The translations under genes were made by a program, and so were the position numbers. This document shows positions 13,958 to 59,105 of a stretch of DNA of 64,000 nt, in pieces; the stretch's first letter is position 1; the number at the start of each line of letters is the position of its first letter. Under the pieces are notes generated by a model that was not told the origin of the DNA, ran no database searches, and saw nothing but the letters and a program-made list of their open reading frames with translations. The DNA comes from Deltaproteobacteria bacterium (GTDB lineage Bacteria; Desulfobacterota; Desulfovibrionia; Desulfovibrionales; Desulfovibrionaceae), in the NCBI GenBank assembly GCA_031266055.1, contig JAISBT010000077.1:2278-66277 (forward strand). The letters run 5' to 3'.

Positions 13958-14220
13958 CCGCCGCAGGCGTAATAGAGCGTTTTAACATTGAAAATGTATA
14001 AAGCGCTCTGCAAGGATTTGCCCGCAAATCCTTGCTTCAGCCGTTGCGACGAAGGAAGCTACGGATGAAGACAGCAAATAGTTGCTAGGCATTCCATCTT
14101 GGCCAATCGCTGTCGCTGTCCGTAAAGCGGCAAGCCGCTTAACGGCTACCGCGCCGCGAGATTATCGCAAGGCGAACTTGCTTCGCCGTTAAGCGATAAT
14201 CTCAAGCGCAAAATGCTCTA
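13958..14220. repeat. Composite of family B hairpin modules
   Basis: In order: the GAGCGTTTTAACATTGAAAATGT palindrome, the GCAAGGATTTGCCCGCAAATCCTTGC hairpin, the CTTCAGCCGTTGCGACGAAGGAAGCTACGGATGAAGACAGCAA module, GAGATTATCGC...GCGATAATCTC, and the terminal AAAATGCTCTA. Confidence 0.85.
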
Positions 14221-14271
14221 GTTCCGGTCATTTTTCCCGCGTTGTGTTGTCAAAAACAAAAGGAAACCGTC

Positions 14272-15735: not shown

Positions 15736-15777
15736 AGCGGTTGCACTTTGACATGCCCTCTCGGGCGGATATCCTAA

Positions 15778-16062
15778 GGCAATTTAACTTTGAGACGCTC
15801 CCTCCGGCGCTTTACGGCGAAACAAGTTTCGCCTGCGCCTGCGGGGCGGGCGGCAGTACCCGCCGCCAGAGCATTCCAACATTTTCAATGTTAAAACGCT
15901 CTAAAAACCGCGGCGGATGGCGGACGCGAGCGTTTTACGTTCGAGATTGCCGCAAGGCGGAACAAGATTCGTCTTGCGGCAATCTCACGGCAAGGATTTG
16001 AGAGCAAATCTTCGCCGAATTGCTGTGCCGGCAAGTGGCACTATTTTCAAAATTAAAATGCT
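15778..16062 (+). repeat. Family B beta-type repeat (15778-15903) followed by further hairpin modules
   Basis: The first 126 bp are almost identical to 1527-1652. GAGATTGCCGCAAGGCGG...CTTGCGGCAATCTC and GCAAGGATTTGAGAGCAAATCTT hairpins follow. The terminal ATTAAAATGCTCTA overlaps the stop codon of the Leu-dehydrogenase gene. Confidence 0.9.
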
Positions 16063-17106: not shown

Positions 17107-17260
17107 GGTAATCCTCCAATGATGTTACATGTTTTATATTTTACAGCAGTTGACGCTTGAACCGCTCCTTGCGGCAGGTTTGCGCCCGCCTGCCCGCATC
17201 TTGCGGCAAGGATTCGTACGCAAGCCCTTGTGGAGCGTTTCAAGGATGAAATGCCGGGAA

Positions 17261-20175: not shown

Positions 20176-20561
20176 AAGGGCTCCTTTGTTTCGAACATAG
20201 ATGAAAAAAATAAAACCTGTTAATAAAATCCAGGCTGATTTGTGGTAATTTTCACTCTGCGAGTGAGTTATCCGCGGCGAGTGAATATTATTGGAGGGAA
20301 AATAACGGGTGGGGGCCAGAGCGTTTTAACATTGAAAATGTTGAAATGCTCTGGCGGCGGGCACCGGCATAGGCAAGCTTCATATCATTTGCTCGCGACA
20401 GGGCTGTAAAAATACTTGCGTTTTTCGCGGGAGCAGGTATATTGAGTGTCAGGCGGGCCGGGAAGCGCATGAACGCTCTCGGCCCTGGCAAGTCCCTCGG
20501 ATTTTACAATCTTCAGAACATGCCCCTGACTGGATGACAGTTCCTTCAGGGGCAAACCTTT

Positions 20562-33072: not shown

Positions 33073-33200
33073 AGAGCAGATTAACTTTGAAAAAGTATGT
33101 CTGCTCTGCAAGGATTTGCCTGTAAATCCTTGCCGCGAAATGCTTGCTTAACGGTGGGCTTTGCCCACCGTTAAGCAAGCATTTCAAGCGTAAAATGCTC
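33073..33200. repeat. Family B alpha-type repeat (second copy)
   Basis: Same three hairpins as 101-225. The central hairpin is CGAAATGCTTGCTTAACGGTGGGCTTTGCCCACCGTTAAGCAAGCATTTCAAGCG, and the element ends in TAAAATGCTC. Confidence 0.88.
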
Positions 33201-33238
33201 CAGGCACCCGCATATAAAACCGGTTTGCACCGGGTTAA

Positions 33239-33379
33239 ATTACAGATTTCCGCATGGAAATCTGAACATCAGCCGTCCGGCTGATGTCGCCGCGAAGCGG
33301 CGAGAGGCAACCGAAAACCACGTTTTTCGGTTGACGATCCTCCGCAGGGAAAAGTTTGCTTTTCAATGCGGATATCAGT
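33239..33379 (-). repeat. Family A five-hairpin 140-bp element, copy 1 (inverted)
   Basis: Reverse complement of the 35637-35776 element. Lies between rplA and rplJ, directly next to the family B copy. Confidence 0.92.
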
Positions 33380-33391
33380 AAAAACCGTCCG

Positions 33392-35517: not shown

Positions 35518-35636
35518 GTTTGCCTCGGTTTATATCTGCTGGAACATTTTCCGCTTGAGATTGTGAAAAGGCGGCGCGGTAAAAAAAAGCCCGGCGCCCG
35601 GCTGGGCGTCTCAAAATTAAACCGCATTACTGCCTT

Positions 35637-35776
35637 ACTGATATCCGCATTGAAAAGTAAACTTTTCCCTGCGGAGGATCGTTAACCGAAAAACGTGGTT
35701 TTCGGTTGACTCTCGCCGCTTCGCGGCGACATCAGCCGTCCGGCTGACGTTCAGATTTCCATGCGGAAATCTGTAA
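35637..35776 (+). repeat. Family A five-hairpin 140-bp element, copy 2
   Basis: ACTGATATCCGCATTGAAAAGTAAACTTTTCCCTGCGGAGGATCGTTAACCGAAAAACGTGGTTTTCGGTTGACTCTCGCCGCTTCGCGGCGACATCAGCCGTCCGGCTGACGTTCAGATTTCCATGCGGAAATCTGTAA(T). Five successive stem-loops. The ends form an imperfect 13-nt terminal inverted repeat (CTGATATCCGCAT / ATGCGGAAATCTG). It abuts the 3' end of tRNA-Trp. Confidence 0.92.
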
Positions 35777-35852
35777 TGGCAGGGCAGGCAGGATTCGAAC
35801 CTGCAACCTGCGGTTTTGGAGACCGCTGCTCTAGCCGTTGAGCCACTGCCCT
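35777..35852 (-). tRNA. tRNA-Trp (anticodon CCA)
   Basis: Manual cloverleaf: acceptor AGGGCAG/CTGCCCT, anticodon stem GCGGT/ACCGC with loop CTCCAAA, T-loop TTCGAAT. CCA is encoded. Confidence 0.93.
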
Positions 35853-38011: not shown

Positions 38012-38097
38012 AGCGAAAAAAAGCTATTATCCACACTTGCGCCAAAAAGCAAGCACATTTTTTCTTTTTACCGGAAAAATTCCGGGAAGGTATTAAT

Positions 38098-38238
38098 ACT
38101 GATATCCGCATTGAAAAGTAAACTTTTCCCTGCGGAGGATCGTCAACCGAAAAACGCGGTTTTCGGTTGACTCCCGCCGCTTCGCGGCGACATCAGCCGG
38201 ACGGCTGATGTGCAGATTTCCATGCGGAAATCTGTAAT
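38098..38238 (+). repeat. Family A five-hairpin element, copy 3
   Basis: About 95 percent identical by eye to 35637-35776. Lies in the divergent region between the tRNA/tuf operon and the mdh-like gene. Confidence 0.92.
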
Positions 38239-38319
38239 TCACTTTTGTTTGCGTTCAGGATACATTTCCTTGACGGGCCATTTGTGAATGAGTCAAATCA
38301 ATCAATGCGGAGGCAACTT

Positions 38320-39234
38320 ATGAAGCTGGCAATTGTTGGCGCGGCGGGTTCAATCGGTGCTCCGACCGCTTTTTATATCGCGCAGCGCAACATTGTGGAT
38401 AAAATTGTTCTGATTGATCCCAACCAGAAGCTCCTTAAAAACCATGCCATGGATATGACGCAGGCCGTTCTGGAAGTTTCCGACAGTGAAATCAGCACCG
38501 GCGACTATAAAGACCTCGCCGGCGTTGACATAATCATTTTGTCCGCGGCCCAGCCCGCTGCCGCCGTTACCTCCCGCAACGCCTGGCTTAAAGGCAACCT
38601 TGAGCTGTTGAGGGATGTTACCGGAGAAATAAAAAAGCACGTCCGGGACAAGGTGATCATTGTAGTCACCAACCCGGTGGATATCTGCACATATTACGTT
38701 TACAAACAGCTCGGCTGGAGCAGGAATAAAATCGTCGGGTTCAATGTCAATGATTCAGTGCGCGTGCGCTGGGCTTTGCACAAAACTACGGGTCTGGATT
38801 ATAAAAAGCTGGACGGCCTGTGCATCGGCGAGCACGGAATGTATCAGGTTCCCCTGTTCAGCCAGGTTACTTACGAGGGGAAGCCCCTCGCCATTACGGA
38901 TGAAGTCAGGGCCGCCACCAACAAAGCCATTCATGACTGGACCACCGAATTTCTGGAACTTGCGGATGCGCGCACAACCGGCTGGCTTTGCTGCATCACC
39001 CTTTCCGATTTGGTTGCGGATCTGGTTAAAGGCAGCAGCAAGCCGATAGTTTCCACTACCCCGCTTGAAGGCGAATACCGCGAGCGGGACATTTGCCTTG
39101 GCGTGCCGGTAATGCTTGGCCCGACAGGCATTCAGGAAATTGTCAGTTTGCCTATCAGCGCTGAGGAGCGCATGCAATTTCATGAAGCCGCGGAAAACGT
39201 CCGCAGGGTGATCAGGGACGCCGGTCTGCAATAG
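38320..39234 (+). CDS. Malate/L-lactate dehydrogenase family protein
   Basis: [15 protein letters not shown] Rossmann start, VTNPVD, and catalytic IGEHG. The substrate-loop sequence is atypical, so MDH versus LDH was not decided. The start was moved to 38320. Confidence 0.85.
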
Positions 39235-44619: not shown

Positions 44620-44960
44620 TACGCCGCAATATTTAAAAGTTCGCATGGAACAGCGTACTAGCCGCGTCCGGCGGGGATTACCCCCACTGAACCGCTTGAA
44701 CAGTCAATACGGAAATAGTTGGAAACGATTTTTCCGTATTGACTGTAATTCATGAAGTATTATTTCGCTCCGGCGGCGTTGCCGCCGGTATTGCTTAGTG
44801 CGCTGTCCCGCTTAAAAATGCAGGTCAAACAGCGTACTGGACGCCGGGCGGCGAGCCCGGCGCGCCGCCTTAAGGCGGCGGAGCAAAGCAAAAACCACGT
44901 TTTTTGCTTTGCGATCTTCACACTTCAAACGTAGCGAAGCGAAGTTTTAAGTGTGACATG
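44620..44960. repeat. Hairpin-rich intergenic composite (further repeat modules)
   Basis: A 15-bp perfect hairpin, CAGTCAATACGGAAA (44701-44715) / TTTCCGTATTGACTG (44731-44745). Also GCAAAGCAAAAACCACGTTTTTTGCTTTGC (44883-44912), which shares its centre AAAACCACGTTTTT with hairpin 2 of family A, and CACACTT...AAGTGTG. Confidence 0.7.
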
Positions 44961-46396: not shown

Positions 46397-46755
46397 AATA
46401 GTTCCCCATAAAGCCCGGAGATATGATGATTGAACAGGGCTGAACAACAGCCTGCCCGGCCTTGCATCCCGTGGGTTGCGCTTCAGGCGTGAAACAACCG
46501 GCACAGAGCCAACCAAAGGAGGACAAGACCGGTGAAAAAGGTACTCCATGCAGGCATGGGCGTCCACAAGAAAAGTATATCCGTCCAAAGGGCAGAGGCA
46601 TCTTATACCATCTCTACGTCAAAACTGCATCCATGCAGTTTTGACGTATCGGCTGCGGCGGAAGCTTGGGTTCCGCCTTGGCTCCGAAATGCTTCGCATT
46701 TCAGCACGACGTCCTTCCGTGCATTCCAATTCCAATTAAAAATTAACACATTTTT

Positions 46756-46895
46756 ACTGATATCCGCATTGAAAAGTAAACTTTTCCCTGCGAGGATCGT
46801 CAACCGAAAAACGTGGTTTTCGGTTGACTCTCGCCGCTTCGCGTCGACATCAGCCTGACGGCTGATGCTCAGATTTCCATGCGGAAATCTGTAAT
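46756..46895 (+). repeat. Family A five-hairpin element, copy 4
   Basis: Same element as 35637-35776, with a 1-nt deletion in hairpin 1 and point changes in hairpins 3 and 4. Lies about 210 bp upstream of tRNA-Val. Confidence 0.9.
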
Positions 46896-47105
46896 TGGAA
46901 TTATTGCGCCTGACCTGTATATCCGTTGCTTGTACGGCTGAAGGCGGAGACATCCGCCATTACGGAACAATACCGAATCATTTTGCGGCATTGGGTTATG
47001 CTGTTGAAAAGTTTTCTTGTAAAGGACTTGCTTTTTACCGCATAGCTGGATATGTATTCTGCTCCTCTTATTTCAGTTGCCTCGGTTTTCAGTTGCCTCG
47101 GTTCC

Positions 47106-47181
47106 GGGCGGTTAGCTCAGTTGGTAGAGCATCGGCCTTACAAGCCGGGGGCCACAGGTTCGAGCCCTGTACCGCCCACCA
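47106..47181 (+). tRNA. tRNA-Val (anticodon TAC)
   Basis: Manual cloverleaf: acceptor GGGCGGT/ACCGCCC, D-arm GCTCAGTTGGTAGAGC, anticodon loop CTTACAA, T-arm ACAGGTTCGAGCCCTGT. CCA is encoded. Confidence 0.93.
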
Positions 47182-47315
47182 CTAGTCACACAAGGGTTTG
47201 CGTTGAAAGACGCGAACTCTTTTTTCAACCCATTGTCAACAGATTCTCAACACCTGTTTGACCAGCTAATTTGCTTTTTCACGTGCGCCGAGGGCCTACT
47301 TCAGGAGGTCTTCAT

Positions 47316-48572
47316 ATGGCGACACACAAAAGGGTAACAACTCGTTTCACCGGAGTATTCACCAGAACCACGTCAGATCCCAAGCGCAAGCATAATGGGC
47401 GACCTGACCGCGTGTTCGACATTTATTGGCGAGACGCGGATGGAAAACAATGCTGGGAAGTGACCGGCTGGCTGTCGGAGGGCATGACCGAACAGGCCGC
47501 CTTTAATCTGCGGACTGAACGTCTGGCAGCCGTCAAAAAATCTGTTTCATTCTCTCCCATTCAAGGTTCTCTACCAACTGGCGCACAGCAAACTCAGCCA
47601 TTACCGGAGGATCCGCAAAAGCCTGCGTTGGACACCCCGCTATTTTCCACCATTGCAGAGAATTATCTTCGTTGGTTGGAAGGTGAAAGCAAATATGCGG
47701 ATCGGGAAAAATTTCGTTATGACACACATTTACTGAAACCGCTGGGCAACGTGCCTGTTGATCAAATCGCGATCACGAATGCCAATAACTTTAAGCACCA
47801 ACTTATGCCCAAAATGGCAATAGGTACAGTTAAAAAATGTTTGAGTCTTTGCCGCGCAATGTATTTCTATGCGTCACTTACCGGGGCCTATTCGGGTCTC
47901 AACCCTTTCAGCAGGCGATGCGGTTTCAACATGCCGAAAGGAGCTACCGAGTGCGAAAGGTTTCTGACCCCGGACGAGGCGAAAATATTATTGGCCGAAC
48001 TGGCAAAGCGTAGCCCCCAATTAAGAAACATGTGCTATGTGTCCCTGCACACAGGAATAAGGCCTTGCGAGCTTTATTCCATCCGCGGCGGAGATTTGGT
48101 TCCGCAAGCTGGATTTTTCTGGGTTGACGGAAAAGGCGGAAAGCGTGAAAAGGTCGCCGCCAGCAAAGAAATTCTGGAGATTCTGGGGAATTATAAACGC
48201 AAGCCACATGAGTATATTTTTCAATCTAAAAGCGGCGGAAAAATAAAGCAAACTTCCGATACATTGCGCCGTACTGTGGAGGATCTGGGGCTCTCACCTC
48301 GAACTGTCATCAAAAAAGGGGGAAAGGAAGTTCGAGTTAAAATGGCACCTGAGGAAAAAAAAGAGTACCAGCGCAAAAAAATATGGCTTCACACATTTCG
48401 GCACACTTTTGCAAGCTGGTTGGCTCAAAGCGGCACAGTGACTTTGCTGGAACTGAGGGATTTACTCCGTCACGAATCCACGCAAATGACAGAACGATAT
48501 GCACACATGATACCTGACAAACTTGTTGAGCAATCGAGTAAAATCAATAAAATTCTAGGTGAAGTCGCCTAA
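47316..48572 (+). CDS. int: Tyrosine-type site-specific integrase
   Basis: Catalytic residues in context: LHTGIRPCEL (Arg), HTFRHTFASWL (His-x-x-Arg) and HESTQMTERYAH (Tyr). The start is at the ATG behind AGGAGG, directly downstream of tRNA-Val. Confidence 0.92.
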   Translation: MATHKRVTTRFTGVFTRTTSDPKRKHNGRPDRVFDIYWRDADGKQCWEVTGWLSEGMTEQAAFNLRTERLAAVKKSVSFSPIQGSLPTGAQQTQPLPEDPQKPALDTPLFSTIAENYLRWLEGESKYADREKFRYDTHLLKPLGNVPVDQIAITNANNFKHQLMPKMAIGTVKKCLSLCRAMYFYASLTGAYSGLNPFSRRCGFNMPKGATECERFLTPDEAKILLAELAKRSPQLRNMCYVSLHTGIRPCELYSIRGGDLVPQAGFFWVDGKGGKREKVAASKEILEILGNYKRKPHEYIFQSKSGGKIKQTSDTLRRTVEDLGLSPRTVIKKGGKEVRVKMAPEEKKEYQRKKIWLHTFRHTFASWLAQSGTVTLLELRDLLRHESTQMTERYAHMIPDKLVEQSSKINKILGEVA

Positions 48573-48581
48573 TACTCATAG

Positions 48582-48614
48582 GCGAGGGGCATGGCTGACT
48601 GGCCTGCCCCTCGT
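48582..48614. terminator. Hairpin between the convergent int and xis-like genes
   Basis: CGAGGGGC (48583-48590) pairs with GCCCCTCG (48606-48613). It sits exactly between two convergent stop codons. Confidence 0.5.
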
Positions 48615-48803
48615 CTATGCTGTGGTTAAAACCCGCTTCGACTCAATCCACTGTTCAACATCTTTGGGTTTATAGCGTATATGTTTCCCCAGTTTGTGAT
48701 AGGACGGCCCCATCTTAAGGGATCGCCATTTTTCAAGCGTTGTTGTCGGGATATTATACATCTCCTCAACCTCCACGGGGGAAAGTAACTTTTCAGTTAT
48801 CAT
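48615..48803 (-). CDS. Excisionase/AlpA-like helix-turn-helix protein
   Basis: LLSPVEVEEMYNIPTTTLEKWRSLKMGPSYHKLGKHIRYKPKDVEQWI matches the MerR-superfamily Xis/AlpA pattern. The start was chosen 6 nt after GGAGG. Confidence 0.75.
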   Translation of the reverse strand: MITEKLLSPVEVEEMYNIPTTTLEKWRSLKMGPSYHKLGKHIRYKPKDVEQWIESKRVLTTA

Positions 48804-49026
48804 TGCCATCCTCCCGCCCTTTATCCGCAAGGCAGGCGCCGGCCCGTAAAAACATTTCAAGATCAGATTTGCGGTATCTTATGGTTCCGTTTGCCAACCT
48901 GAAAAAAGTTATCTTTTTCTGCTTCCTCCACAGCCACAACGTATTCGGGCTGATATGGAGCAGGTAGGCCGCCTCCTTCTCGGTCCACATCCTCTCATCA
49001 ATACTCGTTACAAGATCCTCGGTCAT
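48793..49026 (-). CDS. Second excisionase-family helix-turn-helix protein
   Basis: WTEKEAAYLLHISPNTLWLWRKQKKITFFRLANGTIRYRKSDLEMFL fits the HTH_17/excisionase pattern. GGAGG RBS. Confidence 0.75.
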   Translation of the reverse strand: MTEDLVTSIDERMWTEKEAAYLLHISPNTLWLWRKQKKITFFRLANGTIRYRKSDLEMFLRAGACLADKGREDGNDN

Positions 49027-49095
49027 AAAAACCTCCAGATATAGATTTCATACCTGGAGGCTTTGGGAGACGTACTTAAGCAAATTGGATTGCGC

Positions 49096-50835
49096 TCACG
49101 GCTTGCGAGAGTCAGCCAACCCGGTATGCCCATCTCCGTCACCAGACGAGAGGGCAAGATGTTTCCGAACCTGCAGGGCAATCCAGACGCTCAATTTTGT
49201 TTGAATGTCGTTCAAGTCGATGTTCAAAATTTCTTTAATTTTCTCAATGCGATACTTTACAGTATTTCTATGGAGACCTGTGTTTCTGTATATATCTGAG
49301 AGATTTTGATTGTAAAACAGATAGGTTTCAAGTGTTTCGTAATAATCTTCCTTATGTTTTATTCTGGATGCCATAAAATGCCCCAGAACATCACCGCAGA
49401 AATTTTTGGCCCTTGTTTTGTCCTGCATGATGCCGTCCAACAGACTGTAATATTGGACGATTGGGTATTGTCCTGTATCGGAGAGAGACATTCGTGACAA
49501 TTCAAACCGTGCCGCTATCCGAATTGACGCTACAGCTTCATCAAAGCTCAAGCGCAGACTGACGATGCCAGCCCCAGGCCGCCCGACGCCGAGCCGGAAC
49601 TTAGGCAAATTTTTCTGGCTTTCCAATCGGCTCAGGACATATCCAAAACGCTCCTGGAATCCTGTTTTCACTATTTTTTGCTTTTTAGAGATTCTATCAT
49701 CAAGTATATGACAAAAGATGACTATTGAAGAATGATGTCGAATTACAAGAACATCTGGATCAATTGAACGCAGAGATTCAGAGAGTCGTGATATATGCGT
49801 ATCGTTTATGAAACCGACTGAAGATTCAGATCCCACAAGTTGGGCAACAACACAAAAGGAAGGAGTTTCGTAGTCGAAACCATATAGCTTGGCGCGGTTC
49901 TCGGCTTCGTTTTTTCGGATGGGATCAATTATGGCATTGAATAGTTCAAGGCGGATTTCGTCCTGAATCTCATAGGTTGAATCTTTCAAGGCAACAAGGG
50001 CAGTGGTATTTACTGCTACCCGCATCAGCAAAAGATCGTCGGCATCAAATTCTTTGTTGACTTGAATGACTGAGATATACCCATAAAAATGACGGCTAAT
50101 TTCAACGGGAAAGGTGAGCTGCCGATATTCCTTATTTTGCACGAAGAATTCGTGTTCTATAAACCGCAGTCCCCATGTAGGGATGGTTTTGTAGCTTGTT
50201 GGCCTGCTTAGCTTTGCGAAAATTTGTGACACGCAGCTTGCATCGCGTCGAGATGACAATATTTGACTTTCATGTGGTTTTTGGCTGTCACACGCGCTGA
50301 CAAGATTCATATTGGGTGTTTCGAGCAGAACGGGGTTGTTGAACGCTTCAGATAACGCCCGGACAAATTCCGGCATCCATCCTTCCACTGTTGCAAGGGT
50401 AATCTCCGAAAATGTATCCAGAACTTTTTTAAGAGTATCCGCCTTACCGGCAAGGATGCGGGTGATAATTTCCTCTCCCACTGCCGGCAATGAAAGGTCG
50501 TCATCCATCTCAATGATCGGAAAACTGTTCCAGTCGCCTATCTCCAGAAGGAATTGGGGAATTTTACCATTGTAAATCGAGCGTTTAATGCCGAGGGCAG
50601 AAGCGCCGGATTCTATCAGGGATTTGACCCAGGAGGATATTTCTTCTTCCGAGTGGGAGTCGGAAGCAAAGGACATCATGGACATGATGAATTCACCTCC
50701 TTTCATCCAAAGATAAAAATCAAAGCGTTCAGCCACATTCCAGCCCTGAACGGTTCTGTTAAGCCCAGAACGACCAGAAAGGACATGGCATCTTGAAAGA
50801 GATGGCAACTTCAATATTTCACCGACTGTCACCAT
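49096..50835 (-). CDS. PucR-family transcriptional regulator
   Basis: The N-terminal VTVGEILKLPSLSRCHVLSGRSGLNRTVQGWNVAE is PucR N-domain-like. The C-terminal LETYLFYNQNLSDIYRNTGLHRNTVKYRIEKIKEILNIDLND is a PucR_C HTH. AAGGAG RBS before ATG 50835. Confidence 0.85.
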   Translation of the reverse strand: MVTVGEILKLPSLSRCHVLSGRSGLNRTVQGWNVAERFDFYLWMKGGEFIMSMMSFASDSHSEEEISSWVKSLIESGASALGIKRSIYNGKIPQFLLEIGDWNSFPIIEMDDDLSLPAVGEEIITRILAGKADTLKKVLDTFSEITLATVEGWMPEFVRALSEAFNNPVLLETPNMNLVSACDSQKPHESQILSSRRDASCVSQIFAKLSRPTSYKTIPTWGLRFIEHEFFVQNKEYRQLTFPVEISRHFYGYISVIQVNKEFDADDLLLMRVAVNTTALVALKDSTYEIQDEIRLELFNAIIDPIRKNEAENRAKLYGFDYETPSFCVVAQLVGSESSVGFINDTHISRLSESLRSIDPDVLVIRHHSSIVIFCHILDDRISKKQKIVKTGFQERFGYVLSRLESQKNLPKFRLGVGRPGAGIVSLRLSFDEAVASIRIAARFELSRMSLSDTGQYPIVQYYSLLDGIMQDKTRAKNFCGDVLGHFMASRIKHKEDYYETLETYLFYNQNLSDIYRNTGLHRNTVKYRIEKIKEILNIDLNDIQTKLSVWIALQVRKHLALSSGDGDGHTGLADSRKP

Positions 50836-50921
50836 GAATTTCTCCTTATTATGCGTTATACTGAAATAACCGGCACAAACCCTTCCATGGTTGACCCACA
50901 CCGGAAATAAACGATTGGCAG

Positions 50922-51057
50922 ACGTAATTACGTTAAATTATTTGACTTATCGGTTTTGTTTTTTTGTTAATCTGTTTTTTACCGTTTTGTTTTTTTTTGA
51001 AATTTGATTTTTTGGCGTTTTGATGTTTTGTCAATTTGTTTTTTTGATTTTAAGGAT
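50922..51057. promoter_or_regulatory. Divergent control region: 12-bp palindrome ACGTAATTACGT plus about 100 bp of roughly helically phased T-tracts
   Basis: Palindrome at 50922-50933. T4-T9 runs start near 50953, 50958, 50975, 50985, 50990, 51008, 51018, 51026, 51039 and 51048. Lies between the divergent PucR-like and Rep-like genes. Confidence 0.6.
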
Positions 51058-51270
51058 ATTTATCATATAAAAACAAAACGTTATATGGCACATCTTCACC
51101 TGGTTGTCACATGGAAAATTCGGCTGAACCCGTTATTGTAGGAGAGCACGCAAAAGAAATACGTTGTATTGTAGGAAACCCCTTCAAATTTATTATCTTG
51201 CATTTTTTACGTTCCCGACCTCATTTCATGAGGGAAATGAGCACCCTCGTTTGTAACTGTGAGGGAACTT

Positions 51271-52668
51271 ATGAGCGACACAAACAGATATGCCTCTTCT
51301 GGCGGCAATACTTTGCCGTCAGAATCCTCCCTGAATTCAGAAAATTCTCCATATCCACCATATCCGATGGCTGAGGAAGGTTCATCGTTTGGGGACGCCG
51401 CTCCAGTAAAAACAAGTTTCGAGCGGTTCCCTGATGAATCACGCCTTTGTCCTTTACCTGTTCACGACCTGTCCAATATACCTGTCCAGGACCTGTCTTC
51501 AGCACCTGTTCACCACCTGTCCAGCATTGACGTGAACACGGGTAAGACAGGTGGTGGACAGGTGCTGAACACCTCAACTGGACAGGTGGTGAACAGTTCA
51601 ACCAGACAGGTGGTGGACAGTCCTGATGACTCGCCTGAGCCGTTTTATCTTCTCCGTAAGAATATGGCTTCGTGGACAGACAACCAAATCAAGGTGTTAG
51701 GCATGTTCAGGCAATGCAGGCACTGCGTTACCAACCATAAGGCAATCGGGGAAAAGCTTGGAATACCCTATGGAACAGTGAGAAATATCATCCGCAGGTT
51801 GACCAGTACCGGGCTCATTCGCTCAGAACCATACATAAATGCGGCTATCCGGGGCATTGAGGTGTGGTACTGCGGATCTGCCCCCTGTCCTTTTGTTCCG
51901 GATTCTTCAGGCATGGCACAAAGCCCTCGGATCGAAGATGAACAGGCCGGATGCACAGCTCCTGAACAGCATGTTAGGACAGGTGCTGAACACCTGACTT
52001 GGACAGGTGGTGAACAACTCGCATATAAGGAAGATAGAAAGAAAGAATATGGAATAGAAATACAAGAAAAGAATCAATCTATCGTAACTCTTGCAAAGGG
52101 TCAGATTAACGAACTATGGCCCAGCATGGGCAAGGCCGGACTTTTCGCGTCGCACATCAGGGAAGTCTTGGCTGCGATGGTAATTCAAGGAATTGAGGAA
52201 AAACCCGAGAAAATCATTGCTCAATCTTTGCGCTTTATAGATTGGCAACTCTCCCAAGGAGCGCTTAAAGACAAGCATGGAAAAGAGGTTCTTGACCCCG
52301 TGGCTTATTGGCGCGCCGCAATGAAAAGCAACGGTTTCTATCAGAAACCGCCGGGGTACATAGACCCGGAAGTGTTGGCTCTGCAACAGCTTTCCGAGGA
52401 AGGAGAAGCGAAGGTTAAAGCCATGTACGCTCTGGCCCAGCAACGCGCGGAGATGGAAAAAGCTGCCCGTAGAACAGAACTCGACGCTATCCTGCAATCG
52501 CTTGCCGACGAAGGTGAAAACCATCGCCTCTGGCCTCAAGTGCATGCAGCTTGGACGGAAAACGTCCGGCTTGAAGTAAAGAAAAATCCCCAGGCCATTC
52601 TCAGCAGCCCGGGGATTGCCGCGGCAACTAGGATTTACCTGAGAAAACTCTACGACTGGCCTGATTGA
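51271..52668 (+). CDS. Winged-helix DNA-binding protein, candidate replication/maintenance initiator of the element (function unverified)
   Basis: Long ORF (51259-52668, ATG at 51271 behind GAGGG). HTH-like segment LGIPYGTVRNIIRRLTSTGLIRSE. Iteron-like repeats lie inside its 5' third. Confidence 0.6.
   Translation: MSDTNRYASSGGNTLPSESSLNSENSPYPPYPMAEEGSSFGDAAPVKTSFERFPDESRLCPLPVHDLSNIPVQDLSSAPVHHLSSIDVNTGKTGGGQVLNTSTGQVVNSSTRQVVDSPDDSPEPFYLLRKNMASWTDNQIKVLGMFRQCRHCVTNHKAIGEKLGIPYGTVRNIIRRLTSTGLIRSEPYINAAIRGIEVWYCGSAPCPFVPDSSGMAQSPRIEDEQAGCTAPEQHVRTGAEHLTWTGGEQLAYKEDRKKEYGIEIQEKNQSIVTLAKGQINELWPSMGKAGLFASHIREVLAAMVIQGIEEKPEKIIAQSLRFIDWQLSQGALKDKHGKEVLDPVAYWRAAMKSNGFYQKPPGYIDPEVLALQQLSEEGEAKVKAMYALAQQRAEMEKAARRTELDAILQSLADEGENHRLWPQVHAAWTENVRLEVKKNPQAILSSPGIAAATRIYLRKLYDWPD
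51458..51620. repeat. Iteron-like array: three inverted then three or four direct copies of a 17-nt word on a 24-bp register
   Basis: Inverted copies: CTGTTCACGACCTGTCC (51458-51474), a degenerate copy (51480-51498) and CTGTTCACCACCTGTCC (51506-51522). Direct copies: AGACAGGTGGTGGACAG (51545-51561), GGACAGGTGCTGAACAC (51556-51572), GGACAGGTGGTGAACAG (51580-51596) and AGACAGGTGGTGGACAG (51604-51620). Confidence 0.9.
51977..52017 (+). repeat. Two further direct copies of the iteron-like word
   Basis: GGACAGGTGCTGAACAC (51977-51993) and GGACAGGTGGTGAACAA (52001-52017), again 24 bp apart. Confidence 0.88.
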
Positions 52669-52671
52669 TAG

Positions 52672-53262
52672 TCACCCTTTCCGTAGTTCATAAATTTTGC
52701 TGATAACGGCAGCTTTTATGGGTTTGGATGGCAGCACCGCCATGTAATAATCCCTGAACACCCCATCCTCAAAAAATTCCATGTTCAGCGCGAGGTCGTT
52801 TTTCTCGTTCCTGACCCGAGCCAGCAGTTTCTTCCGTAATTTTGAAAACTCCGTGTGCTGGCACATTATTTCAGCCCGCACCGCCTCATATTCTCTGTAT
52901 ATCCGTTTGTCGGCCATGGTCACTTTCAACCTGCCGGGGAGCCGCTCCCTGGAAATGCCACTTGGAGTATTGTCCCATGAAACCTTTGATTTTGGCGGTT
53001 CCAACCCGGCCTTCCCCATTTCCTCCCTTTGTTTCTTGCTGAAAGTCACATAGTAGTACCTCACCCAATAAATGGAATGCGGGCACATATCACATGCCTT
53101 CAATTCGGCGCACCGGTCCAGATGCAAAGTCCAGCCGCATTTCCTCGTTGCCGGAAATCGGTTGTAAAACGCTCCCGCCAAGTCCTCCATGAGCACTTTC
53201 CATTCCTTCAACTCGGCTGAGACATCTTTCAGCATTTTATCCAGGTTCAGACCGGTTTCCAT
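52672..53262 (-). CDS. Hypothetical Cys-containing protein, oppositely oriented
   Basis: 196 aa from METGLNLDK (GGAGG RBS 8 nt upstream). Contains C...C-x6-C-x2-C (CGWTLHLDRCAELKACDMC). No family recognised. Confidence 0.55.
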   Translation of the reverse strand: METGLNLDKMLKDVSAELKEWKVLMEDLAGAFYNRFPATRKCGWTLHLDRCAELKACDMCPHSIYWVRYYYVTFSKKQREEMGKAGLEPPKSKVSWDNTPSGISRERLPGRLKVTMADKRIYREYEAVRAEIMCQHTEFSKLRKKLLARVRNEKNDLALNMEFFEDGVFRDYYMAVLPSKPIKAAVISKIYELRKG

Positions 53263-53354
53263 AGTTTTTACCTCCTGATGACAGGCAGCGGGAGGGAATA
53301 CCGCGCAATTTGCCTTCCCATATCTCCCGAACGGAAAAAGTGGAGGTAACAATC

Positions 53355-54197
53355 ATGGCAAATCAAGCGTTAGGAATTCCATTGTTAGCGATCCTTTTGG
53401 CGTTGTCGTCTCAACCGAACAAAGGAAGTGAGGCGGACAAAGTTGTACAGGAACCGCGGAAAGCAATTGAGGAGAGGACGGCCGGCTTGCATGTCCGGCA
53501 GCCTGATGAGGAACGCGCGTGGACTGATGCACTGCCTGACGCTCTGACGGTGCCAGCGCAAACGCGGGAACAGGGAAGGGAGACCGCTGAAAAGGCCGTA
53601 GACGCAGCCAAAGAGCAGCAAGGCTTGGTTCAGACCTACACGGAAAACATCTGGGCGAAAGTCCAATCGGAGTCCGAGGAAAAAGGCTTTCAGTACGATG
53701 AAGAATACCTTGAACGGCTAGCCGTGCAAAATCGGGAACAAAGCCTGTATGAGAACACGCATCTGTATGTTTTCATTTCCGAATCCGTGCCGGACATCAC
53801 GTTGCAAAATTATCAGAAAGCCATGGAAGGTAGCCCTGCGGCCTTTGTTCTGCGTGGGCTCATAGGCGACGACCCGTCGAAGTTTCAGCCCACACAAGCT
53901 TGGGTTCAGCGCATGCTTTGCGGTGATCCGCCTTATGAGGCAGGCAGCAAATGCTTCCTGAACCCCGTGGACATCAGTCCCAACCTGTTCAGGGCGTTCG
54001 GAATTGAGCAAGTTCCGGCTTTGGTTTACGTTCCTCATCCCGAACAAATTGCGTCCTGTGGCGAATCGCCCATGCCGGAGAAAGATTTCTTTGTATGGTA
54101 CGGCGATCTGGCTTCGTCCTATATCCTGGAAGAAATTCAGAAACTCCGTCCAGATGATCTGACGTTGCACTCCATCATTCAGAAGATCGGACGGTGA
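53355..54197 (+). CDS. trbC: TrbC-like (F-type) conjugative pilus assembly protein
   Basis: Signal peptide, then LYVFISESVPDITLQNY...AFVLRGL...NPVDISPNLFRAFGIEQVPALVYV, which resembles the TrbC_Ftype domain. Followed by a TraF-like gene. Confidence 0.65.
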   Translation: MANQALGIPLLAILLALSSQPNKGSEADKVVQEPRKAIEERTAGLHVRQPDEERAWTDALPDALTVPAQTREQGRETAEKAVDAAKEQQGLVQTYTENIWAKVQSESEEKGFQYDEEYLERLAVQNREQSLYENTHLYVFISESVPDITLQNYQKAMEGSPAAFVLRGLIGDDPSKFQPTQAWVQRMLCGDPPYEAGSKCFLNPVDISPNLFRAFGIEQVPALVYVPHPEQIASCGESPMPEKDFFVWYGDLASSYILEEIQKLRPDDLTLHSIIQKIGR

Positions 54198-55087
54198 AGA
54201 TCAGGTTAATCATGGGCATTATTGCCTGTTGCCTGCTGTGGTCGGACATCGGGGCAGCCGATACGGTCAGGTTGCCCAACCCGACATATTACACTGACCC
54301 GAATGTATGCCGTGGATGGTTCTGCTACGAAGATCCTACGCCGGTTAAAGTGCCTGAGCCCGATACTCTCGTAGAACAGCCAAAGAGGCGGAGTTTCACA
54401 GGCAAGGTTGACTGGGACTCGGTATGGATAATGCACCCCGATGATATGCGCGAATTGATCAATCAAGCATTGGCTTTTGCCCAGGAAAAACCGCAAGACG
54501 AGGAACGGATGGTAACGTATCTCAAACTCCAGGGCGTTGCCATGCACCGGGCGAAGAATTTCCAGGAAGCCTGGGCCTCGGCGCTGCTGAAATACCCCGT
54601 GCTGGACACCACGGTGCAGCGCGCGCCAACCCTGGCGGCAACAACCGCGGAAGTAGTGGCCGAAAGAGAAGAACGGGAAATCGCGATTCAGGCCATGCGG
54701 GAAAACATGGGCATCTTGTTTTTCTACTCACCGACTTGCCGATATTGCAGCCAGCAAAAGGAAATCCTGGAAAATTTCATTCAGAAGTGGGGCTGGAGAA
54801 ACATCACCGCCATCAATGTCCTTTCGTCACCTGACACTGCCCGGAAATACGGAGTGCAGTCCGTACCGGATCTATGGGTTGCCGGTAACATCAGGGGTGA
54901 AACAGTCCAACGCAGGCTCAAATCAGGTCTTGTTGAATTCCACGATCTCGAAAGGGGTCTTCTTCAAGCATGGAGCCTGTGGAATGACGGCAGGAACTAT
55001 GAGCGTCCCGTGATGACCCACCAGCTGCAGTCTTTTGAGGATTTCCTGCAGCCGGCCAAACAAGGAGGTTATCAAAAGTGGCATTGA
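54194..55087 (+). CDS. traF: TraF/TrbB-like thioredoxin-fold conjugal transfer protein (CxxC present)
   Basis: GILFFYSPTCRYCSQQKEILENF...YGVQSVPDLWV fits the TraF-like (thioredoxin) family pattern. GTG start overlapping the trbC stop. Confidence 0.75.
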   Translation: MKIRLIMGIIACCLLWSDIGAADTVRLPNPTYYTDPNVCRGWFCYEDPTPVKVPEPDTLVEQPKRRSFTGKVDWDSVWIMHPDDMRELINQALAFAQEKPQDEERMVTYLKLQGVAMHRAKNFQEAWASALLKYPVLDTTVQRAPTLAATTAEVVAEREEREIAIQAMRENMGILFFYSPTCRYCSQQKEILENFIQKWGWRNITAINVLSSPDTARKYGVQSVPDLWVAGNIRGETVQRRLKSGLVEFHDLERGLLQAWSLWNDGRNYERPVMTHQLQSFEDFLQPAKQGGYQKWH

Positions 55088-55587
55088 AGCCGATATGTAT
55101 ACTGGTCATAACCTATATTTTTATTTGTACGGCTTCAGCGGCCCACGCGAATGATAAACTGGCTGCGCATTTTGAAGACGGCTGCGGCATGTGGGGTGTT
55201 CCTCCATCACTGGCAATGGCCATCGCCAAGGTGGAAAGCGATTTTCGGCCTTTTACCATCAATGTACAGGGCAGGAGTCATTATATGAATGACAAGGAAA
55301 GCTCTTTGGCGTTGATAAAAAAAGCATCATCCAGCAGGCAATCCTATGATGTCGGATTGATGCAGATCAACTCATACTGGCTCAATAAGCTCAATCTTGA
55401 TCCCGCCGAAGTTCTTGATCCAAGAATCAACATCATCATCGGGTGCTGGATCCTCTCAGAAGAGTTGAAGCGGTATGGCATGAACTGGAAAGCCATAGGG
55501 GCTTACCATACTCCGGTCAATAAAAACCCGGAACGCGCCAGGACGTATGCCGATAAAGTCCTTAAAGCGTGGGAGGACTACAAATGA
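55078..55587 (+). CDS. Lytic transglycosylase (SLT domain), T4SS-associated
   Basis: AIAKVESDFRP (catalytic Glu), YDVGLMQINSYWL and AYHTP motifs. Signal peptide. Confidence 0.85.
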   Translation: MALKPICILVITYIFICTASAAHANDKLAAHFEDGCGMWGVPPSLAMAIAKVESDFRPFTINVQGRSHYMNDKESSLALIKKASSSRQSYDVGLMQINSYWLNKLNLDPAEVLDPRINIIIGCWILSEELKRYGMNWKAIGAYHTPVNKNPERARTYADKVLKAWEDYK

Positions 55588-55976
55588 TCGGTTATCTGCC
55601 CATCAACGAGGCCAGCGGCAAAGCGGGAATCACCATCTACATGCTGAATAAGCTCATTGAGGATGGAAAGGTTCGGGTCAAAGAGACATCCGACATCTCC
55701 AGACACAGTAATTCGAGGCTGCGTTACGTCTGCCTCCAGGATATTATCGACGCGCAATCAGATTTGGAACTGAGCTACATTGATATAAGCCGGGTTGGCT
55801 CCGTATATGGACTCACATCTAACGCGGTAAGACATCAGATAAAGAAGCACAGGCTCCGGTGGCGGCGTAATGGAGTTCACCTCCAACCATGCTCTTCCGA
55901 TCTGGATCTGTTCGTTCAGGACAGCAAGACCAAACCTGTAGGCAGGCCGAAAGGCACCTTGTCCGCTTCATCATAA
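55584..55976 (+). CDS. Hypothetical DNA-binding (HTH-like) protein
   Basis: The ATG overlaps the upstream stop (ATGA) behind GGGAGGA. INEASGKAGITIYMLNKLIEDGKV resembles an excisionase/MerR-type HTH. Followed by an intrinsic terminator. Confidence 0.55.
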   Translation: MIGYLPINEASGKAGITIYMLNKLIEDGKVRVKETSDISRHSNSRLRYVCLQDIIDAQSDLELSYIDISRVGSVYGLTSNAVRHQIKKHRLRWRRNGVHLQPCSSDLDLFVQDSKTKPVGRPKGTLSASS

Positions 55977-56032
55977 AGTCACGCCAGGCCACGCGCCGGA
56001 TTATCAGATACCCAACAACCAGAATGGATTTT

Positions 56033-56062
56033 AGGCGAGGCCGCAAGGCTTCGCCTTTTTTT
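56033..56062 (+). terminator. Rho-independent terminator
   Basis: AGGCGAGGCCGCAAGGCTTCGCCT stem-loop followed by TTTTTTT. Confidence 0.8.
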
Positions 56063-56497
56063 AGCTGTGCACCCGAATTTGATGGTGGAAGTCCTCTACC
56101 CGATCTTGGCCTTGTTCTTACCTACAAGTGGAAATAATTTTGGAAAACTTTTCTGAAACTTTGCCAAGCAAAATTTATTTATTCCAGGCTATTATATAAT
56201 ATATGGAAAGCATTTTGGAAAACTGAAGATAAAAATATGCTTAATAACACCGGCTTACGGATACACTCTTTTGGTCAATCTGCACAATTTTTCCAGTAAG
56301 AGCTATCAGGGACGTTCTGAAAACCCGAAAAACTCTGCTCTATCCCCTTGCCGCAACAAGCGCCGGAAAATAGTCAAACAGATAACCACCTGAAATCATA
56401 GAGAGGCGATTAACATTCTGGAACTATAGATGATTTAAGATGATTTGGGTTGTTTTGAATATTGACCATTTTCACCCGTTTTCTGTAATTCTGGTGG

Positions 56498-57508
56498 ATG
56501 GAATTACTGGTGGAACTCACGGCTTTTTATCCCATCGTTCAAGAGCATGGGTTATCCAAATGGTGGATATACAAACAGTTGTCCAAGCTGTCCCATGGCC
56601 TGAAACGTGGTGTTCTTCCTTCCGGACGTTCCACTGCCTCTTCATTGGTGCCCTACGAAGAATTGATGCACCTTGTTTTATGCGCATCAAAGAAAAGGAG
56701 CATAGAGAATATTATTCATCTTGCGTGGACGGTAATCTACGGAAGAAGAATGACACATATGGCATCGCGGTCTCACGGTAATTGGCAGCGCCATTACTCA
56801 ATTCAACGAAATAAAGGGCGAATCGCCATAGGTACTCCTGAAGATTTCTTCGATCTCCGCCCTCGGTTCCTGTTCTTCAAGGACAATCTTGGCGAGTTGG
56901 AAACGGTCATGGCGCCGAAATATTATGCTAAACTCGTCGCATTTCTTGATTCGGCAGAAACCAGGGCAAGAAAATACATTGACAAGATGAGTAAATCGCA
57001 AACTGTTCAGCAGAAGCTGGTAAGTATCGACTATGAACAGTTTTACCATCTCATGCTGGATGCCTTAATATACGGGGCGTCTGAGGAACTTGCATTCAAT
57101 CAGGCTCTGAAAAACGCTCCGAAGCGCTCCGATAAAGGCAGCAGCAAAGAATTTATCACTGCCACGGAAGGAGCCATTGAAAGCTTCGCTGAAGCCGGCG
57201 TGCCCGTGAACTCTTCACCGTTCAAAATGGATTTTGAAAAGCTGCGGCTCGGTTTTGCGGAACAGTTGCTTCAGGAACGAATGACAGCCATGAAGTCACG
57301 AAAACGGCTCACCCATGATGACGAAAACAAGGCATGCGCGCTCGCTGCCGAGGACATGGCGATCTTGGATTTCGTTATTGATGGACTCACGGATGCCGAA
57401 ATTCTGGATAAACTGAACCTGACCTGCACCCGCCAAGCTCTGACCATGCGGCGCTCCCATATCATGGATCTGGCAAAAGAGCACTTCGCGCATCTGATGG
57501 AGGAATAG
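56498..57508 (+). CDS. Hypothetical protein with a C-terminal LuxR/sigma70-region-4-like HTH (candidate tra regulator)
   Basis: 336-aa ORF. The C-terminal MAILDFVIDGLTDAEILDKLNLTCTRQALTMRRSHIM resembles a LuxR-type HTH. No firm family call. Confidence 0.5.
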   Translation: MELLVELTAFYPIVQEHGLSKWWIYKQLSKLSHGLKRGVLPSGRSTASSLVPYEELMHLVLCASKKRSIENIIHLAWTVIYGRRMTHMASRSHGNWQRHYSIQRNKGRIAIGTPEDFFDLRPRFLFFKDNLGELETVMAPKYYAKLVAFLDSAETRARKYIDKMSKSQTVQQKLVSIDYEQFYHLMLDALIYGASEELAFNQALKNAPKRSDKGSSKEFITATEGAIESFAEAGVPVNSSPFKMDFEKLRLGFAEQLLQERMTAMKSRKRLTHDDENKACALAAEDMAILDFVIDGLTDAEILDKLNLTCTRQALTMRRSHIMDLAKEHFAHLMEE

Positions 57509-57566
57509 GTTCAGACGCCGATTTGCATAAACACGCCTCCCGGCTTCTTTGGTCAGGAGGTTTCTT

Positions 57567-58442
57567 ATGCCTGACATCCAATCATTGCACTCGGCTCTTG
57601 GCACCCTACCCCAGAAAGAGCGGAATGAGTTTCTGGGCGCGGCCTTATCCCAACAACCCGTCGAGTTTCTTGAAAGCATCCTGCAGAAACTCGGCCTTGA
57701 AGAACTGCCTGTAAACGCCAAGGTCCGCCTGGTGTTCAAAATGGGCCTTTCTCCCGTTGCCCACGCTTACAAGGCTGGCCCGGATCGTCAACTTCAGTGG
57801 GTTATCCCCTCGGTGCCGGATCATCTGCGTCCTCTGGTTTACTCGACTTCCAGGCTCATCAACGAATTTCTGGAAACCCTCGCCTGTCTGAAAAACGGCA
57901 AAGGCGACTTCGTTAAAGCCTTTACACTGCTCAATCCTGACAACATGCTGGGAATGGTCAACCGCTTCAATGACGAAATGCAGACCTACACCCAGCAGCT
58001 GCGAGAGGCCAATGGCCGCTTTAACCGGTACGGACAGCAAAGAGGCAGGCACGGCAACGGTCTGAAACCGGCCACACCCGCCGCTTCACCTCAGGATGCT
58101 CCACAGGAACAGCCTGCATCGAAAATCGCAATGCCGGAACCAGAACCTGAGCTGAAGACCCGCAAATCGAACGCGAAAACACGATCCAAAGCGCAGCCTC
58201 AGGCCGCGGAAAAAAGCGGTGAAAACCCCTCCGGCGTTGAAAGTCCGGCTCCTGCACTGATTCATGAACCGGTGCCCGAATCTGTCGCAATCGACGCTTC
58301 CTCATACGAATGTGAAGCAGCTCCCGCAGCCGTGCCAGATGGCGATTCTGCCTCTTCTCTCACCGGTAACGAACTGGCGGCCTTCGGCTTTGACGTGCTT
58401 GCCGCGGCTGCGGAAACTCCCCGGGCTGATTCCGGGAAGTAG
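57567..58442 (+). CDS. Hypothetical protein with a Pro/Ala/Glu-rich disordered C-terminal half
   Basis: ATG behind AGGAGG. 291 aa. No family recognised. Confidence 0.5.
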   Translation: MPDIQSLHSALGTLPQKERNEFLGAALSQQPVEFLESILQKLGLEELPVNAKVRLVFKMGLSPVAHAYKAGPDRQLQWVIPSVPDHLRPLVYSTSRLINEFLETLACLKNGKGDFVKAFTLLNPDNMLGMVNRFNDEMQTYTQQLREANGRFNRYGQQRGRHGNGLKPATPAASPQDAPQEQPASKIAMPEPEPELKTRKSNAKTRSKAQPQAAEKSGENPSGVESPAPALIHEPVPESVAIDASSYECEAAPAAVPDGDSASSLTGNELAAFGFDVLAAAAETPRADSGK

Positions 58443-58451
58443 GCACGTACC

Positions 58452-59105
58452 ATGGCAGAACCGCAATACAAGCCGCTGGGTCTGATTCGCCTGACCATTG
58501 CCATAGGAGCGCTCCTGCTTCTGGCGAGCGTCTTCCTGCGGATTTGGGCTGTTCAGCATGCCCCTGAACAAAGGGGAGGATGGAACTACCTGAAGGGCGG
58601 CAACAAGGAATATGTGGTCTGGGCTCCCCTGGAGAATGAAAAAGCTCTCTACCGCGAGGCCGGCTATTCCATTGAGTTTATGGATGGCCCTTCTACGGAG
58701 AAGCTCCGGATCGTCCTAGGGCCATACGCCATCATATTCGAGCTGTTCGCCCTAAGATTCTACGGGTTGCTGACCATTCTCCCCCTGGTGTTGTTCACCT
58801 GCCTGTTCGGCTTCTGCGAAGGCAGAATCATCTACCACGAGAAGATCGCAAGTTTCGGAAATCTATCGGCAACCCGCTTCAAGCTGTTCACGCTGCTGGC
58901 GGTATTCTGCTTCGCGCTGTGCTTCATCTATCTGTCATTGCCGTTTGGTTCCGAACTCCCGTTTATAGGGGCAATTCCACTGACAATCGAGATTTTGGGG
59001 TACCCGCTCTGGACTACGGCCCCATACGTCTGGGCCGTGGTATTCAGCGTCCTCATGTTCTGCGTTGCCCATCAGGTTACGGGCAATCTGGCGCGGGAAA
59101 TTTAG
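58452..59105 (+). CDS. Hypothetical integral membrane protein (4-5 TM)
   Basis: 217 aa with several long hydrophobic segments. Position just upstream of the pilin candidate. Confidence 0.55.
   Translation: MAEPQYKPLGLIRLTIAIGALLLLASVFLRIWAVQHAPEQRGGWNYLKGGNKEYVVWAPLENEKALYREAGYSIEFMDGPSTEKLRIVLGPYAIIFELFALRFYGLLTILPLVLFTCLFGFCEGRIIYHEKIASFGNLSATRFKLFTLLAVFCFALCFIYLSLPFGSELPFIGAIPLTIEILGYPLWTTAPYVWAVVFSVLMFCVAHQVTGNLAREI

Follow-up and report, generated by a model that had tools for sequence, protein, structure and literature searches.

Family A, a probable TA-inserting MITE of five hairpins in intergenic spacers of termite-gut Desulfovibrionaceae

The window analysed here is a 64-kb (64,000-nt) stretch of DNA from an uncultured termite-gut member of the Desulfovibrionaceae. 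Along its minus strand the gene order is rpoB, rplL, rplJ, copy 1 of a repeat that we call Family A, rplA, rplK, nusG, secE, copy 2, tRNA-Trp and tuf; beyond tuf it continues with tRNA-Thr/Gly/Tyr/Thr, copy 3, approximately 970 nt without a recognisable gene, and clpB. Four copies of Family A with pairwise identities of 94-96% were recovered from the window by repeat search and alignment (Table 1), and the program-made list of open reading frames contained no gene-sized frame confined to the element. The original prediction had described four near-identical copies, the first of them inverted, and this was confirmed with slightly shifted limits. Its gene context also held for copies 1, 3 and 4, the distance for copy 3 being 85 and not 86 nt; copy 2, which had been described as touching tRNA-Trp, was found to be separated from it by a gap of 1 nt between its TA and the encoded CCA end of the tRNA (35777). 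The orientation relative to local transcription was not constant, as had been noted: copy 1 runs in the same direction and copy 2 in the opposite one.

Table 1. Coordinates of the Family A copies in the window and of the structural parts of copy 2
Feature	Coordinates	Strand	Remarks
Copy 1	33241..33380	-	TA 33241-33242, core 33243-33378, TA 33379-33380; 13 nt past the rplA stop, upstream of the rplJ leader (repeat search, alignment)
Copy 2	35636..35775	+	TA 35636-35637, core 35638-35773, TA 35774-35775; in the spacer that separates secE from the 3' CCA end of tRNA-Trp (35777); antisense to local transcription
Copy 3	38097..38236	+	TA-flanked; 85 nt upstream of tRNA-Thr(tgt) in the tRNA-Thr-Tyr-Gly-Thr-tuf cluster
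Copy 4	46755..46893	+	TA-flanked; 1-nt deletion in hairpin 1; ~210 nt upstream of tRNA-Val, in the divergent spacer that separates this tRNA from the aroD/aroE fusion gene
Left terminal inverted repeat, copy 2	35638..35650	+	CTGATATCCGCAT
Right terminal inverted repeat, copy 2	35761..35773	-	CAGATTTCCGCAT, minus-strand reading; inside hairpin 5
Hairpin 1	35640..35680	.	Left repeat (GAT/TCCGCA) paired with internal TGCGGA..ATC, similar to the right end
Hairpin 2	35681..35710	.	12 bp; G-C to A-U compensatory changes across genomes
Hairpin 3	35713..35729	.	CGCCGCTTCGCGGCG; nearly invariant
Hairpin 4	35730..35749	.	Most variable; 3 pairs altered on both sides across genomes
Hairpin 5	35752..35773	.	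CAGATTTCC-ATGC-GGAAATCTG; fold-back holding the right terminal repeat

Several other features were observed in the window. The approximately 970 nt that separate copy 3 from the end of clpB (38240-39212) contain no Pfam-recognisable gene, and the only frame tested there, a minus-strand ORF of 158 aa, had no Pfam match; the stretch may be a pseudogene or an unknown gene. A second repeat, a 130-nt hairpin chain (-73 kcal/mol) at 33073-33202, adjoins copy 1 and has relatives at 119-228, 8023-8067, 13993-14221 and 17172-17243. It sits in the loop of a small hairpin, GCGGGTGCC-G-AACCCGCA, which is unbroken in a strain 95% identical to the window (L141), where the repeat is precisely absent. No TA duplication is obvious, and this repeat may move by a mechanism other than that of Family A. 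Further GC-rich chained-hairpin intergenic families, direct and inverted, lie at 1522-1653, 4194-4459, 15774-15904 and 20318-20366, and a high-copy repeat with a depth of about 2000 in runs X1 and X2 lies at 46660-46710, just left of copy 4. In this lineage, several repeat families crowd the spacers and vary from one close strain to another (L142, L144). A hairpin module, GAGCAAAGCA(A/G)AAACCACG(C/T)TTTTTGCTTTGCGATCTT, was found after the HSP20 gene (44881-44922) and in the rpmG-tRNA-Trp spacer of a relative (L143, 1540-1590). The module is 76% alike to hairpin 2 of Family A, a likeness that hints at a possible exchange between repeat families. In the region 47106-62953, an integrative conjugative element appears to have inserted at tRNA-Val. 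After the tRNA (47106-47181) come a phage-type integrase (47271-48572) and genes for F-type conjugation (TrbC, TraF, an SLT transglycosylase, TraE and TrbI/TraB), and GC content falls to 45% at 48-52 kb. Within this putative element, periodic 24-nt repeats, GGACAGGTG(C/G)TGAACA, form direct and inverted arrays at 51480-52040, inside or adjoining an ORF with a weak winged-helix match (51259-52668), and may be iteron-like putative binding sites.

The limits of Family A were set from the flanks aligned over 34 full copies, both TA dinucleotides being counted in. In this alignment the conserved block runs from T-TA-CTGATATCCGCAT at its start to ATGCGGAAATCTG-TA-A at its end, with a core of 136 nt between the two TAs. 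TA was present on both sides in 29 of the 34 copies, the outer base was T at -3 in 28 and A at +3 in 27, and the sequence beyond was random or unrelated. The ends form imperfect terminal inverted repeats of 13 nt, CTGATATCCGCAT versus CAGATTTCCGCAT, in which 11 of 13 positions match, exactly as had been proposed. The end pattern TACWGATWTCCGCAT was found in eight exact occurrences, and in nine when up to two mismatches were allowed, against 0.37 expected by chance. Few columns of the alignment are better conserved than the ends, although the use of the right end as the search probe inflates its apparent conservation; the near-invariance of hairpin 5 is likewise partly an effect of ascertainment, because this hairpin was the probe.

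The minimum-free-energy fold of copy 2, modelled as RNA, consists of five consecutive local hairpins on both strands, in agreement with the chain of five stem-loops that had been read from the sequence. The folding energies on the two strands are -64.7 and -65.8 kcal/mol (z -7.4 and -8.2), and none of 200 dinucleotide shuffles was as stable. The hairpin sequences given in the original prediction are correct as a family consensus but do not hold for every copy; hairpin 4 of copy 2, for example, contains mismatches. This architecture differs from that of typical bacterial MITEs, in which the two ends form one long stem.

Evidence on how Family A comes to occupy its sites was obtained from orthologous loci. 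A JGI contig from the close strain (L141), found through RplA homologues, matches the window at 95.2% identity across 1367 nt of rplK-rplA and lacks copy 1. Past the rplA stop it reads CCTGACGGTTTTT-TA-ATTTAAACCGG (in its longer form CCTGACGGTTTTT-TA-ATTTAAACCGGCGCAAACCGGTTTTATAT), where the window reads ...GGTTTT-TA-element-TA-ATTTAACCCGG (in its longer form CCTGACGGACGGTTTT-TA-136-nt element-TA-ATTTAACCCGGTGCAAACCGGTTTTATAT). The same empty junction, joining 33242 to 33389, was present in an independent low-depth Logan contig of run X2. A small homopolymer/CCGT-repeat indel (one extra T, one fewer CGGA/CCGT unit) lies beside the empty site. Because copy 1 is precisely absent and a single TA is present in a close strain, copy 1 is a recent insertion accompanied by duplication of a TA target site; this site (copy 1, rplA-rplJ) is the one empty site that was read directly. 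At the sites of copies 2-4 in the close strain, run X2 yielded no flanking contigs, and the contigs reaching towards secE (L142) and aroDE (L144) end earlier in other repeats.

More distant relatives, with 78-87% nucleotide identity to the window genes where measured, were also free of the element at the orthologous sites. The rplA-rplJ site was uninterrupted in L137-L140, with the context AATTAGATTTAAACCGG unbroken in L138, and the tRNA-Trp-secE site had a short spacer without the element in L139, L140 and L143. Family A was found in none of the 80 JGI metagenome loci (L057-L136) covering the rplA-rplJ operon. In comparisons between MAGs, synteny was lost at the element in L009 (bin8) and L032 (Kf353). 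The orthologous loci thus displayed presence/absence polymorphism, the copy 1 site being empty in the 95% strain and the sites being unoccupied in relatives. The outcome that had been named as contrary to mobility, namely restriction to four places with conservation at orthologous positions, was not what we found: many copies lie elsewhere and the orthologous sites are empty.

To locate these other copies, an invariant 20-mer from hairpin 5 was searched for in 185,579 species-representative genomes. The scan returned 56 loci, 53 of them in four termite-gut Desulfovibrio MAGs (Nc350_bin8, Nc350_bin1, Kf353_bin37 and Roe453_bin138). The matches outside Desulfovibrio (L017, L031 and L055) had no further similarity to Family A and were rejected as chance. 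A BLAST search of the MAG loci with the whole element recovered about 70 copies, some full and some partial, and many of these lay where a contig ends. Besides the window, at least three Desulfovibrio MAGs carry many dispersed copies, and a fourth, Roe453_bin138, carries a solo hairpin 5 as its sole trace of the family. The genome-wide count and the inspection of flanks thus gave about 70 dispersed copies with unrelated flanks and TA at the ends. Truncated copies consist of hairpins 3-5, hairpins 4-5 or hairpin 5 alone; internal-deletion variants skip 50-100 nt; and partial copies of hairpins 3-5 lie directly 3' of stop codons in L014. A solo hairpin 5, a 22-bp fold-back with TA on both sides (TA-CAGATTTCCATGCGGAAATCTG-TA), occurs at L032 4428-4453 and L053 2296-2321. 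It is possible that this form, in effect two terminal repeats back to back, is a minimal form of Family A. In Logan contigs of run X1, joints that go back 143-145 nt from element end to element start were observed at 35635-35777 and 46753-46896; they represent either head-to-tail tandem copies somewhere in the community or cycles in the assembly graph.

Within genomes the copies were 95% (window), 89% (bin1) and 88% (bin8) identical, compared with 72-88% between genomes. Since copies are more alike within than between genomes, they form lineage-specific subfamilies, which fits lineage-specific amplification. In Logan contigs from the source termite-gut metagenome, the depth of Family A was approximately 5,000-11,000, against 9-10 for the flanking genes, that is, about 500-1000 times the depth of the flanking genome; the element is therefore very abundant in that gut community. 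BLAST against 72,556 plasmids gave no match to Family A, and exact scans of IMG/VR with both ends gave none.

Taken together, Family A is probably a MITE, i.e. a non-coding DNA transposon, with a 136-nt core, imperfect inverted repeats of 13 nt and a 2-bp TA duplication. By the definition of the bacterial MITE class that we applied (PMC2229807), it combines a length below 200-300 bp, absence of coding capacity, terminal inverted repeats, a TA duplication and many dispersed copies. In several Desulfovibrio genomes from termite guts, these copies are found in intergenic spacers and in both orientations. The preference for mobile, MITE-like DNA over an RNA gene, which had been put forward from the letters of the window, is borne out by the spread of copies, the TA flanks, the empty site and the lack of an Rfam match. 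The family is new, but elements of this kind are well known, and no new kind of biology is involved. No published description of it was found when the full-text literature was searched with element sub-sequences or in the literature on Desulfovibrio MITEs and termites.

We propose that Family A would move by cut-and-paste, its CWGATWTCCGCAT ends (right-hand form ATGCGGAWATCWG-TA) being recognised by a DDE transposase provided in trans. This transposase would most likely belong to the IS630/Tc1-mariner superfamily, an assignment for which the TA duplication is the sole basis. The IS630/Tc1-mariner elements are the prokaryotic group that characteristically duplicates TA, and Family A does have a duplicated TA target. 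On the same TA grounds, RUP of pneumococcus has been tied to IS630-Spn1 (PMC2229807). The target preference is likely to be T-TA-A in A/T-rich spacers, which would explain copies beside tRNA genes and at operon junctions, where insertions are tolerated.

To find an autonomous partner, end-like sites with at most 3 mismatches were paired wherever two of them lay no more than 4 kb apart in the window or in one of the loci L001-L056, and the ORFs between or near such pairs were inspected. No transposase was found between paired end-like sites in the 436 kb of window and loci, and MAGs usually lose insertion sequences. The pairs enclosed housekeeping genes (phosphomannomutase, pseudouridine synthase, leuB/leuD-like genes, tgt and others) and were rejected as insertion sequences; they correspond to truncated copies. 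Pfam searches of 20 window ORFs revealed the integrase and conjugation genes and no transposase. Likewise, the window, 372 kb of MAG loci and the phage and plasmid collections yielded no autonomous element or transposase with matching ends, so that the transposase or RAYT gene that had been envisaged was not tied to the Family A ends in the window and MAG loci. Terminal repeats matching an IS630-family element were absent from the window, the MAG loci and the plasmid and IMG/VR scans, which lowers the likelihood of membership in this family but not that of the cut-and-paste model.

The original prediction had further linked Family A to tRNA genes, as three of the four window copies lie near one. 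This link proved weak. Approximately 7 of the 70 copies in the MAG loci (about 10%) lie within 250 nt of a tRNA gene, one of them abutting the 5' end of tRNA-Gln (L048), against a rough expectation of about 7% under intergenic insertion. The association is roughly at the level of intergenic insertion and not clearly above chance. Because the rate in the MAG loci is near this expectation and the window is rich in tRNA genes, the three copies are not evidence for targeting.

The conservation of the hairpins raises the question of whether they serve a function. Over the 34-copy alignment, 93% of the stem cells were paired, compared with 36-47% in slid controls. Double-sided changes affected 10 pairs and 29 cells, against 8.9 +/- 2.3 cells in shuffles, and compensatory double changes were seen in hairpins 1, 2, 4 and 5 (in hairpin 4, for instance, G-C to U-A and G-C to A-U). 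Single-sided stem mismatches comprised 37 G:T and 50 A:C (p=0.2), and therefore neither strand displays the G:U tolerance expected of a functional RNA. Compensatory changes without strand bias indicate that what is constrained is the palindromes as such or, just as well, the transcripts of either strand; a single RNA gene with a fixed orientation would not leave this signature. These stem-preserving changes may reflect selection on the palindromes or hairpin-templated correction. In three loci (L002 1703-1843, L030 3289-3310 and L051 6480-6501) the loop of hairpin 5 is inverted relative to the adjoining hairpin 4 (GCAT versus ATGC). This suggests palindrome-mediated loop flipping or template switching, and the flipped loops indicate that palindrome-specific processes do occur.

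It is conceivable that a MITE of this kind has also been put to use by its host, as in REP/BIME and Correia elements. In DNA, or in transcripts of either orientation, the hairpin chain might stabilise mRNA 3' ends, be processed by RNase III/E, pause transcription or offer an array for protein binding. Such a role would add to the MITE reading and is compatible with it, and it would explain why the stems are maintained. The very stable folds on both strands, the compensatory changes and the paired stems described above, and the position of copies at operon junctions (between rplA and the rplJ leader, between tRNA-Trp and secE, and upstream of a tRNA operon) are consistent with host use, as are the L014 partial copies past stop codons and a conservation between genomes that exceeds that of housekeeping genes (as a bound only). 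However, no T-run follows the hairpins and copy 1 is dispensable in the 95% strain. Hairpin-templated repair or conversion, of which the flipped loops are a sign, can keep palindromes symmetric without selection, and the apparent conservation of hairpin 5 is inflated because the loci were ascertained through it. On balance we consider a host function unlikely.

The conservation between genomes bears on a broader proposal. The Family A copies in the NCBI MAGs have 84-92% nucleotide identity to the window copies, while the best NCBI matches to the window proteins have amino-acid identities of 85% (RplA) and 61% (AroDE). This comparison is a bound only, as the MAGs' own orthologues are unassigned, and is valid only if the bins contain the RplA and AroDE genes. 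If the bound holds, Family A appears from these alignments to be better conserved between genomes than housekeeping genes, which suggests either horizontal spread among co-resident species or constraint on its sequence. Pure selfish drift is a poor fit because of the compensatory changes and the 84-92% identity between genomes. One might accordingly picture a five-hairpin architecture under selection whose sequence is held or exchanged over genus-level distances among co-resident termite-gut Desulfovibrionaceae, through horizontal movement (e.g. by conjugative elements like that at tRNA-Val in the window) or through host use at operon junctions. We regard this proposal as quite improbable. If it were true, Family A and the neighbouring chained-hairpin families would mark an unusual, actively remodelled intergenic system in symbionts.

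A different route of mobility was also considered, in which the palindromic element moves as single-stranded DNA under the action of an HUH tyrosine transposase, either as a PATE of the IS200/IS605 type or as a RAYT-driven, REP/BIME-like element. Such an enzyme would recognise the subterminal hairpins and not the inverted repeats. Hairpins 1 and 5 are indeed at the ends of Family A, and imperfect palindromes follow one another along its whole length; it shares its spacers with several other chained-hairpin families, as in BIME clusters. The left flank is usually TTAC, which is the target tetranucleotide of IS608. However, the empty site, TTTTTTAATTTAA, contains no TTAC. Family A has true inverted repeats (11/13) and TA on both sides that is present once in the empty site, whereas HUH elements make no target duplication, and no HUH gene was seen near any copy in the window and the ORFs inspected. 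Because of the true inverted repeats, the duplicated TA and the empty site without TTAC, an HUH/RAYT mechanism is very unlikely.

Family A does resemble REP/BIME elements in that these are intergenic imperfect palindromes arranged in mosaics, with several repeat types per spacer and possible roles in mRNA stability. However, a REP consists of one palindrome, about 20-40 nt long, that has a conserved GTAG head but neither terminal inverted repeats nor a target duplication, whereas the 136 nt of Family A form a fixed unit whose ends are inverted repeats and whose TA target is duplicated. It is not a short single palindrome with a 5' tetranucleotide, the GTAG-type head is absent, and no RAYT gene flanked by repeats was present in the window or the ORFs inspected. 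The likeness is in hairpin-mosaic character only.

Family A could also be read not as mobile DNA but as the gene of a structured non-coding RNA in several copies, or as a cis-regulatory RNA, a tRNA-linked sRNA being one example. This reading could appeal to the element's strong predicted structure, its covariation and the three window copies near tRNA genes, but it is extremely improbable: Rfam gave only tRNAs, without a match to Family A at the gathering score or even at E<=1, so that the known structured RNA family that would have overturned the original prediction did not appear; a scan for a consensus promoter or intrinsic terminator inside the element gave nothing above shuffled expectation; its orientation is inconsistent with neighbouring transcription; stem mismatches show a G:U excess on neither strand; it is precisely present or absent at a TA between strains; orthologous sites are empty in all relatives examined; and only about 10% of copies in other genomes are near tRNA genes.

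As a TA-inserting MITE, Family A has its closest known analogues in Correia/NEMIS, RUP and other bacterial MITEs with this target. To our knowledge, the Correia sequence is unrelated to that of Family A, the two being set apart here by description. Correia elements have repeats of about 24-26 bp that form one long stem and carry an IHF site and promoter elements, whereas Family A has 13-nt repeats, five independent hairpins and no consensus promoter; their hosts are Neisseria and uncultured termite-gut Desulfovibrionaceae, respectively. Correia/NEMIS elements of Neisseria are like Family A in being non-coding and about 100-155 bp long, with terminal inverted repeats and TA termini with duplication; their intergenic copies also number from dozens to hundreds, with sites that are filled in some strains and empty in others, internal deletions and no cognate host transposase identified (PMC2229807). 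RUP of Streptococcus pneumoniae is similarly small and intergenic, inserts at TA and has a high within-genome similarity suggesting recent activity, and its mobilisation in trans by an IS630-family transposase was proposed from its TA target (PMC2229807). The RUP repeats match those of the resident IS630-Spn1, whereas no insertion sequence with ends matching Family A was found in the window and MAG loci. The cyanobacterial Nezha, a small, intergenic, TA-inserting MITE, is also attributed to IS630.

For the annotation of Desulfovibrionaceae genomes from termite guts, Family A is a repeat family with a name and defined limits. Short-read assemblies break at the element, as many MAG contigs end inside it. 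Being polymorphic between strains that are approximately 95% identical, it can be used as a strain marker and can be a source of regulatory variation at core operons; those touched in the window are rplKAJL, tRNA-Trp/secE and tRNA-tuf. Apart from this value for marking and annotation, Family A is an ordinary bacterial MITE. Its transposase, if found, would add a TA-specific transposon system from an uncultured lineage of anaerobes.
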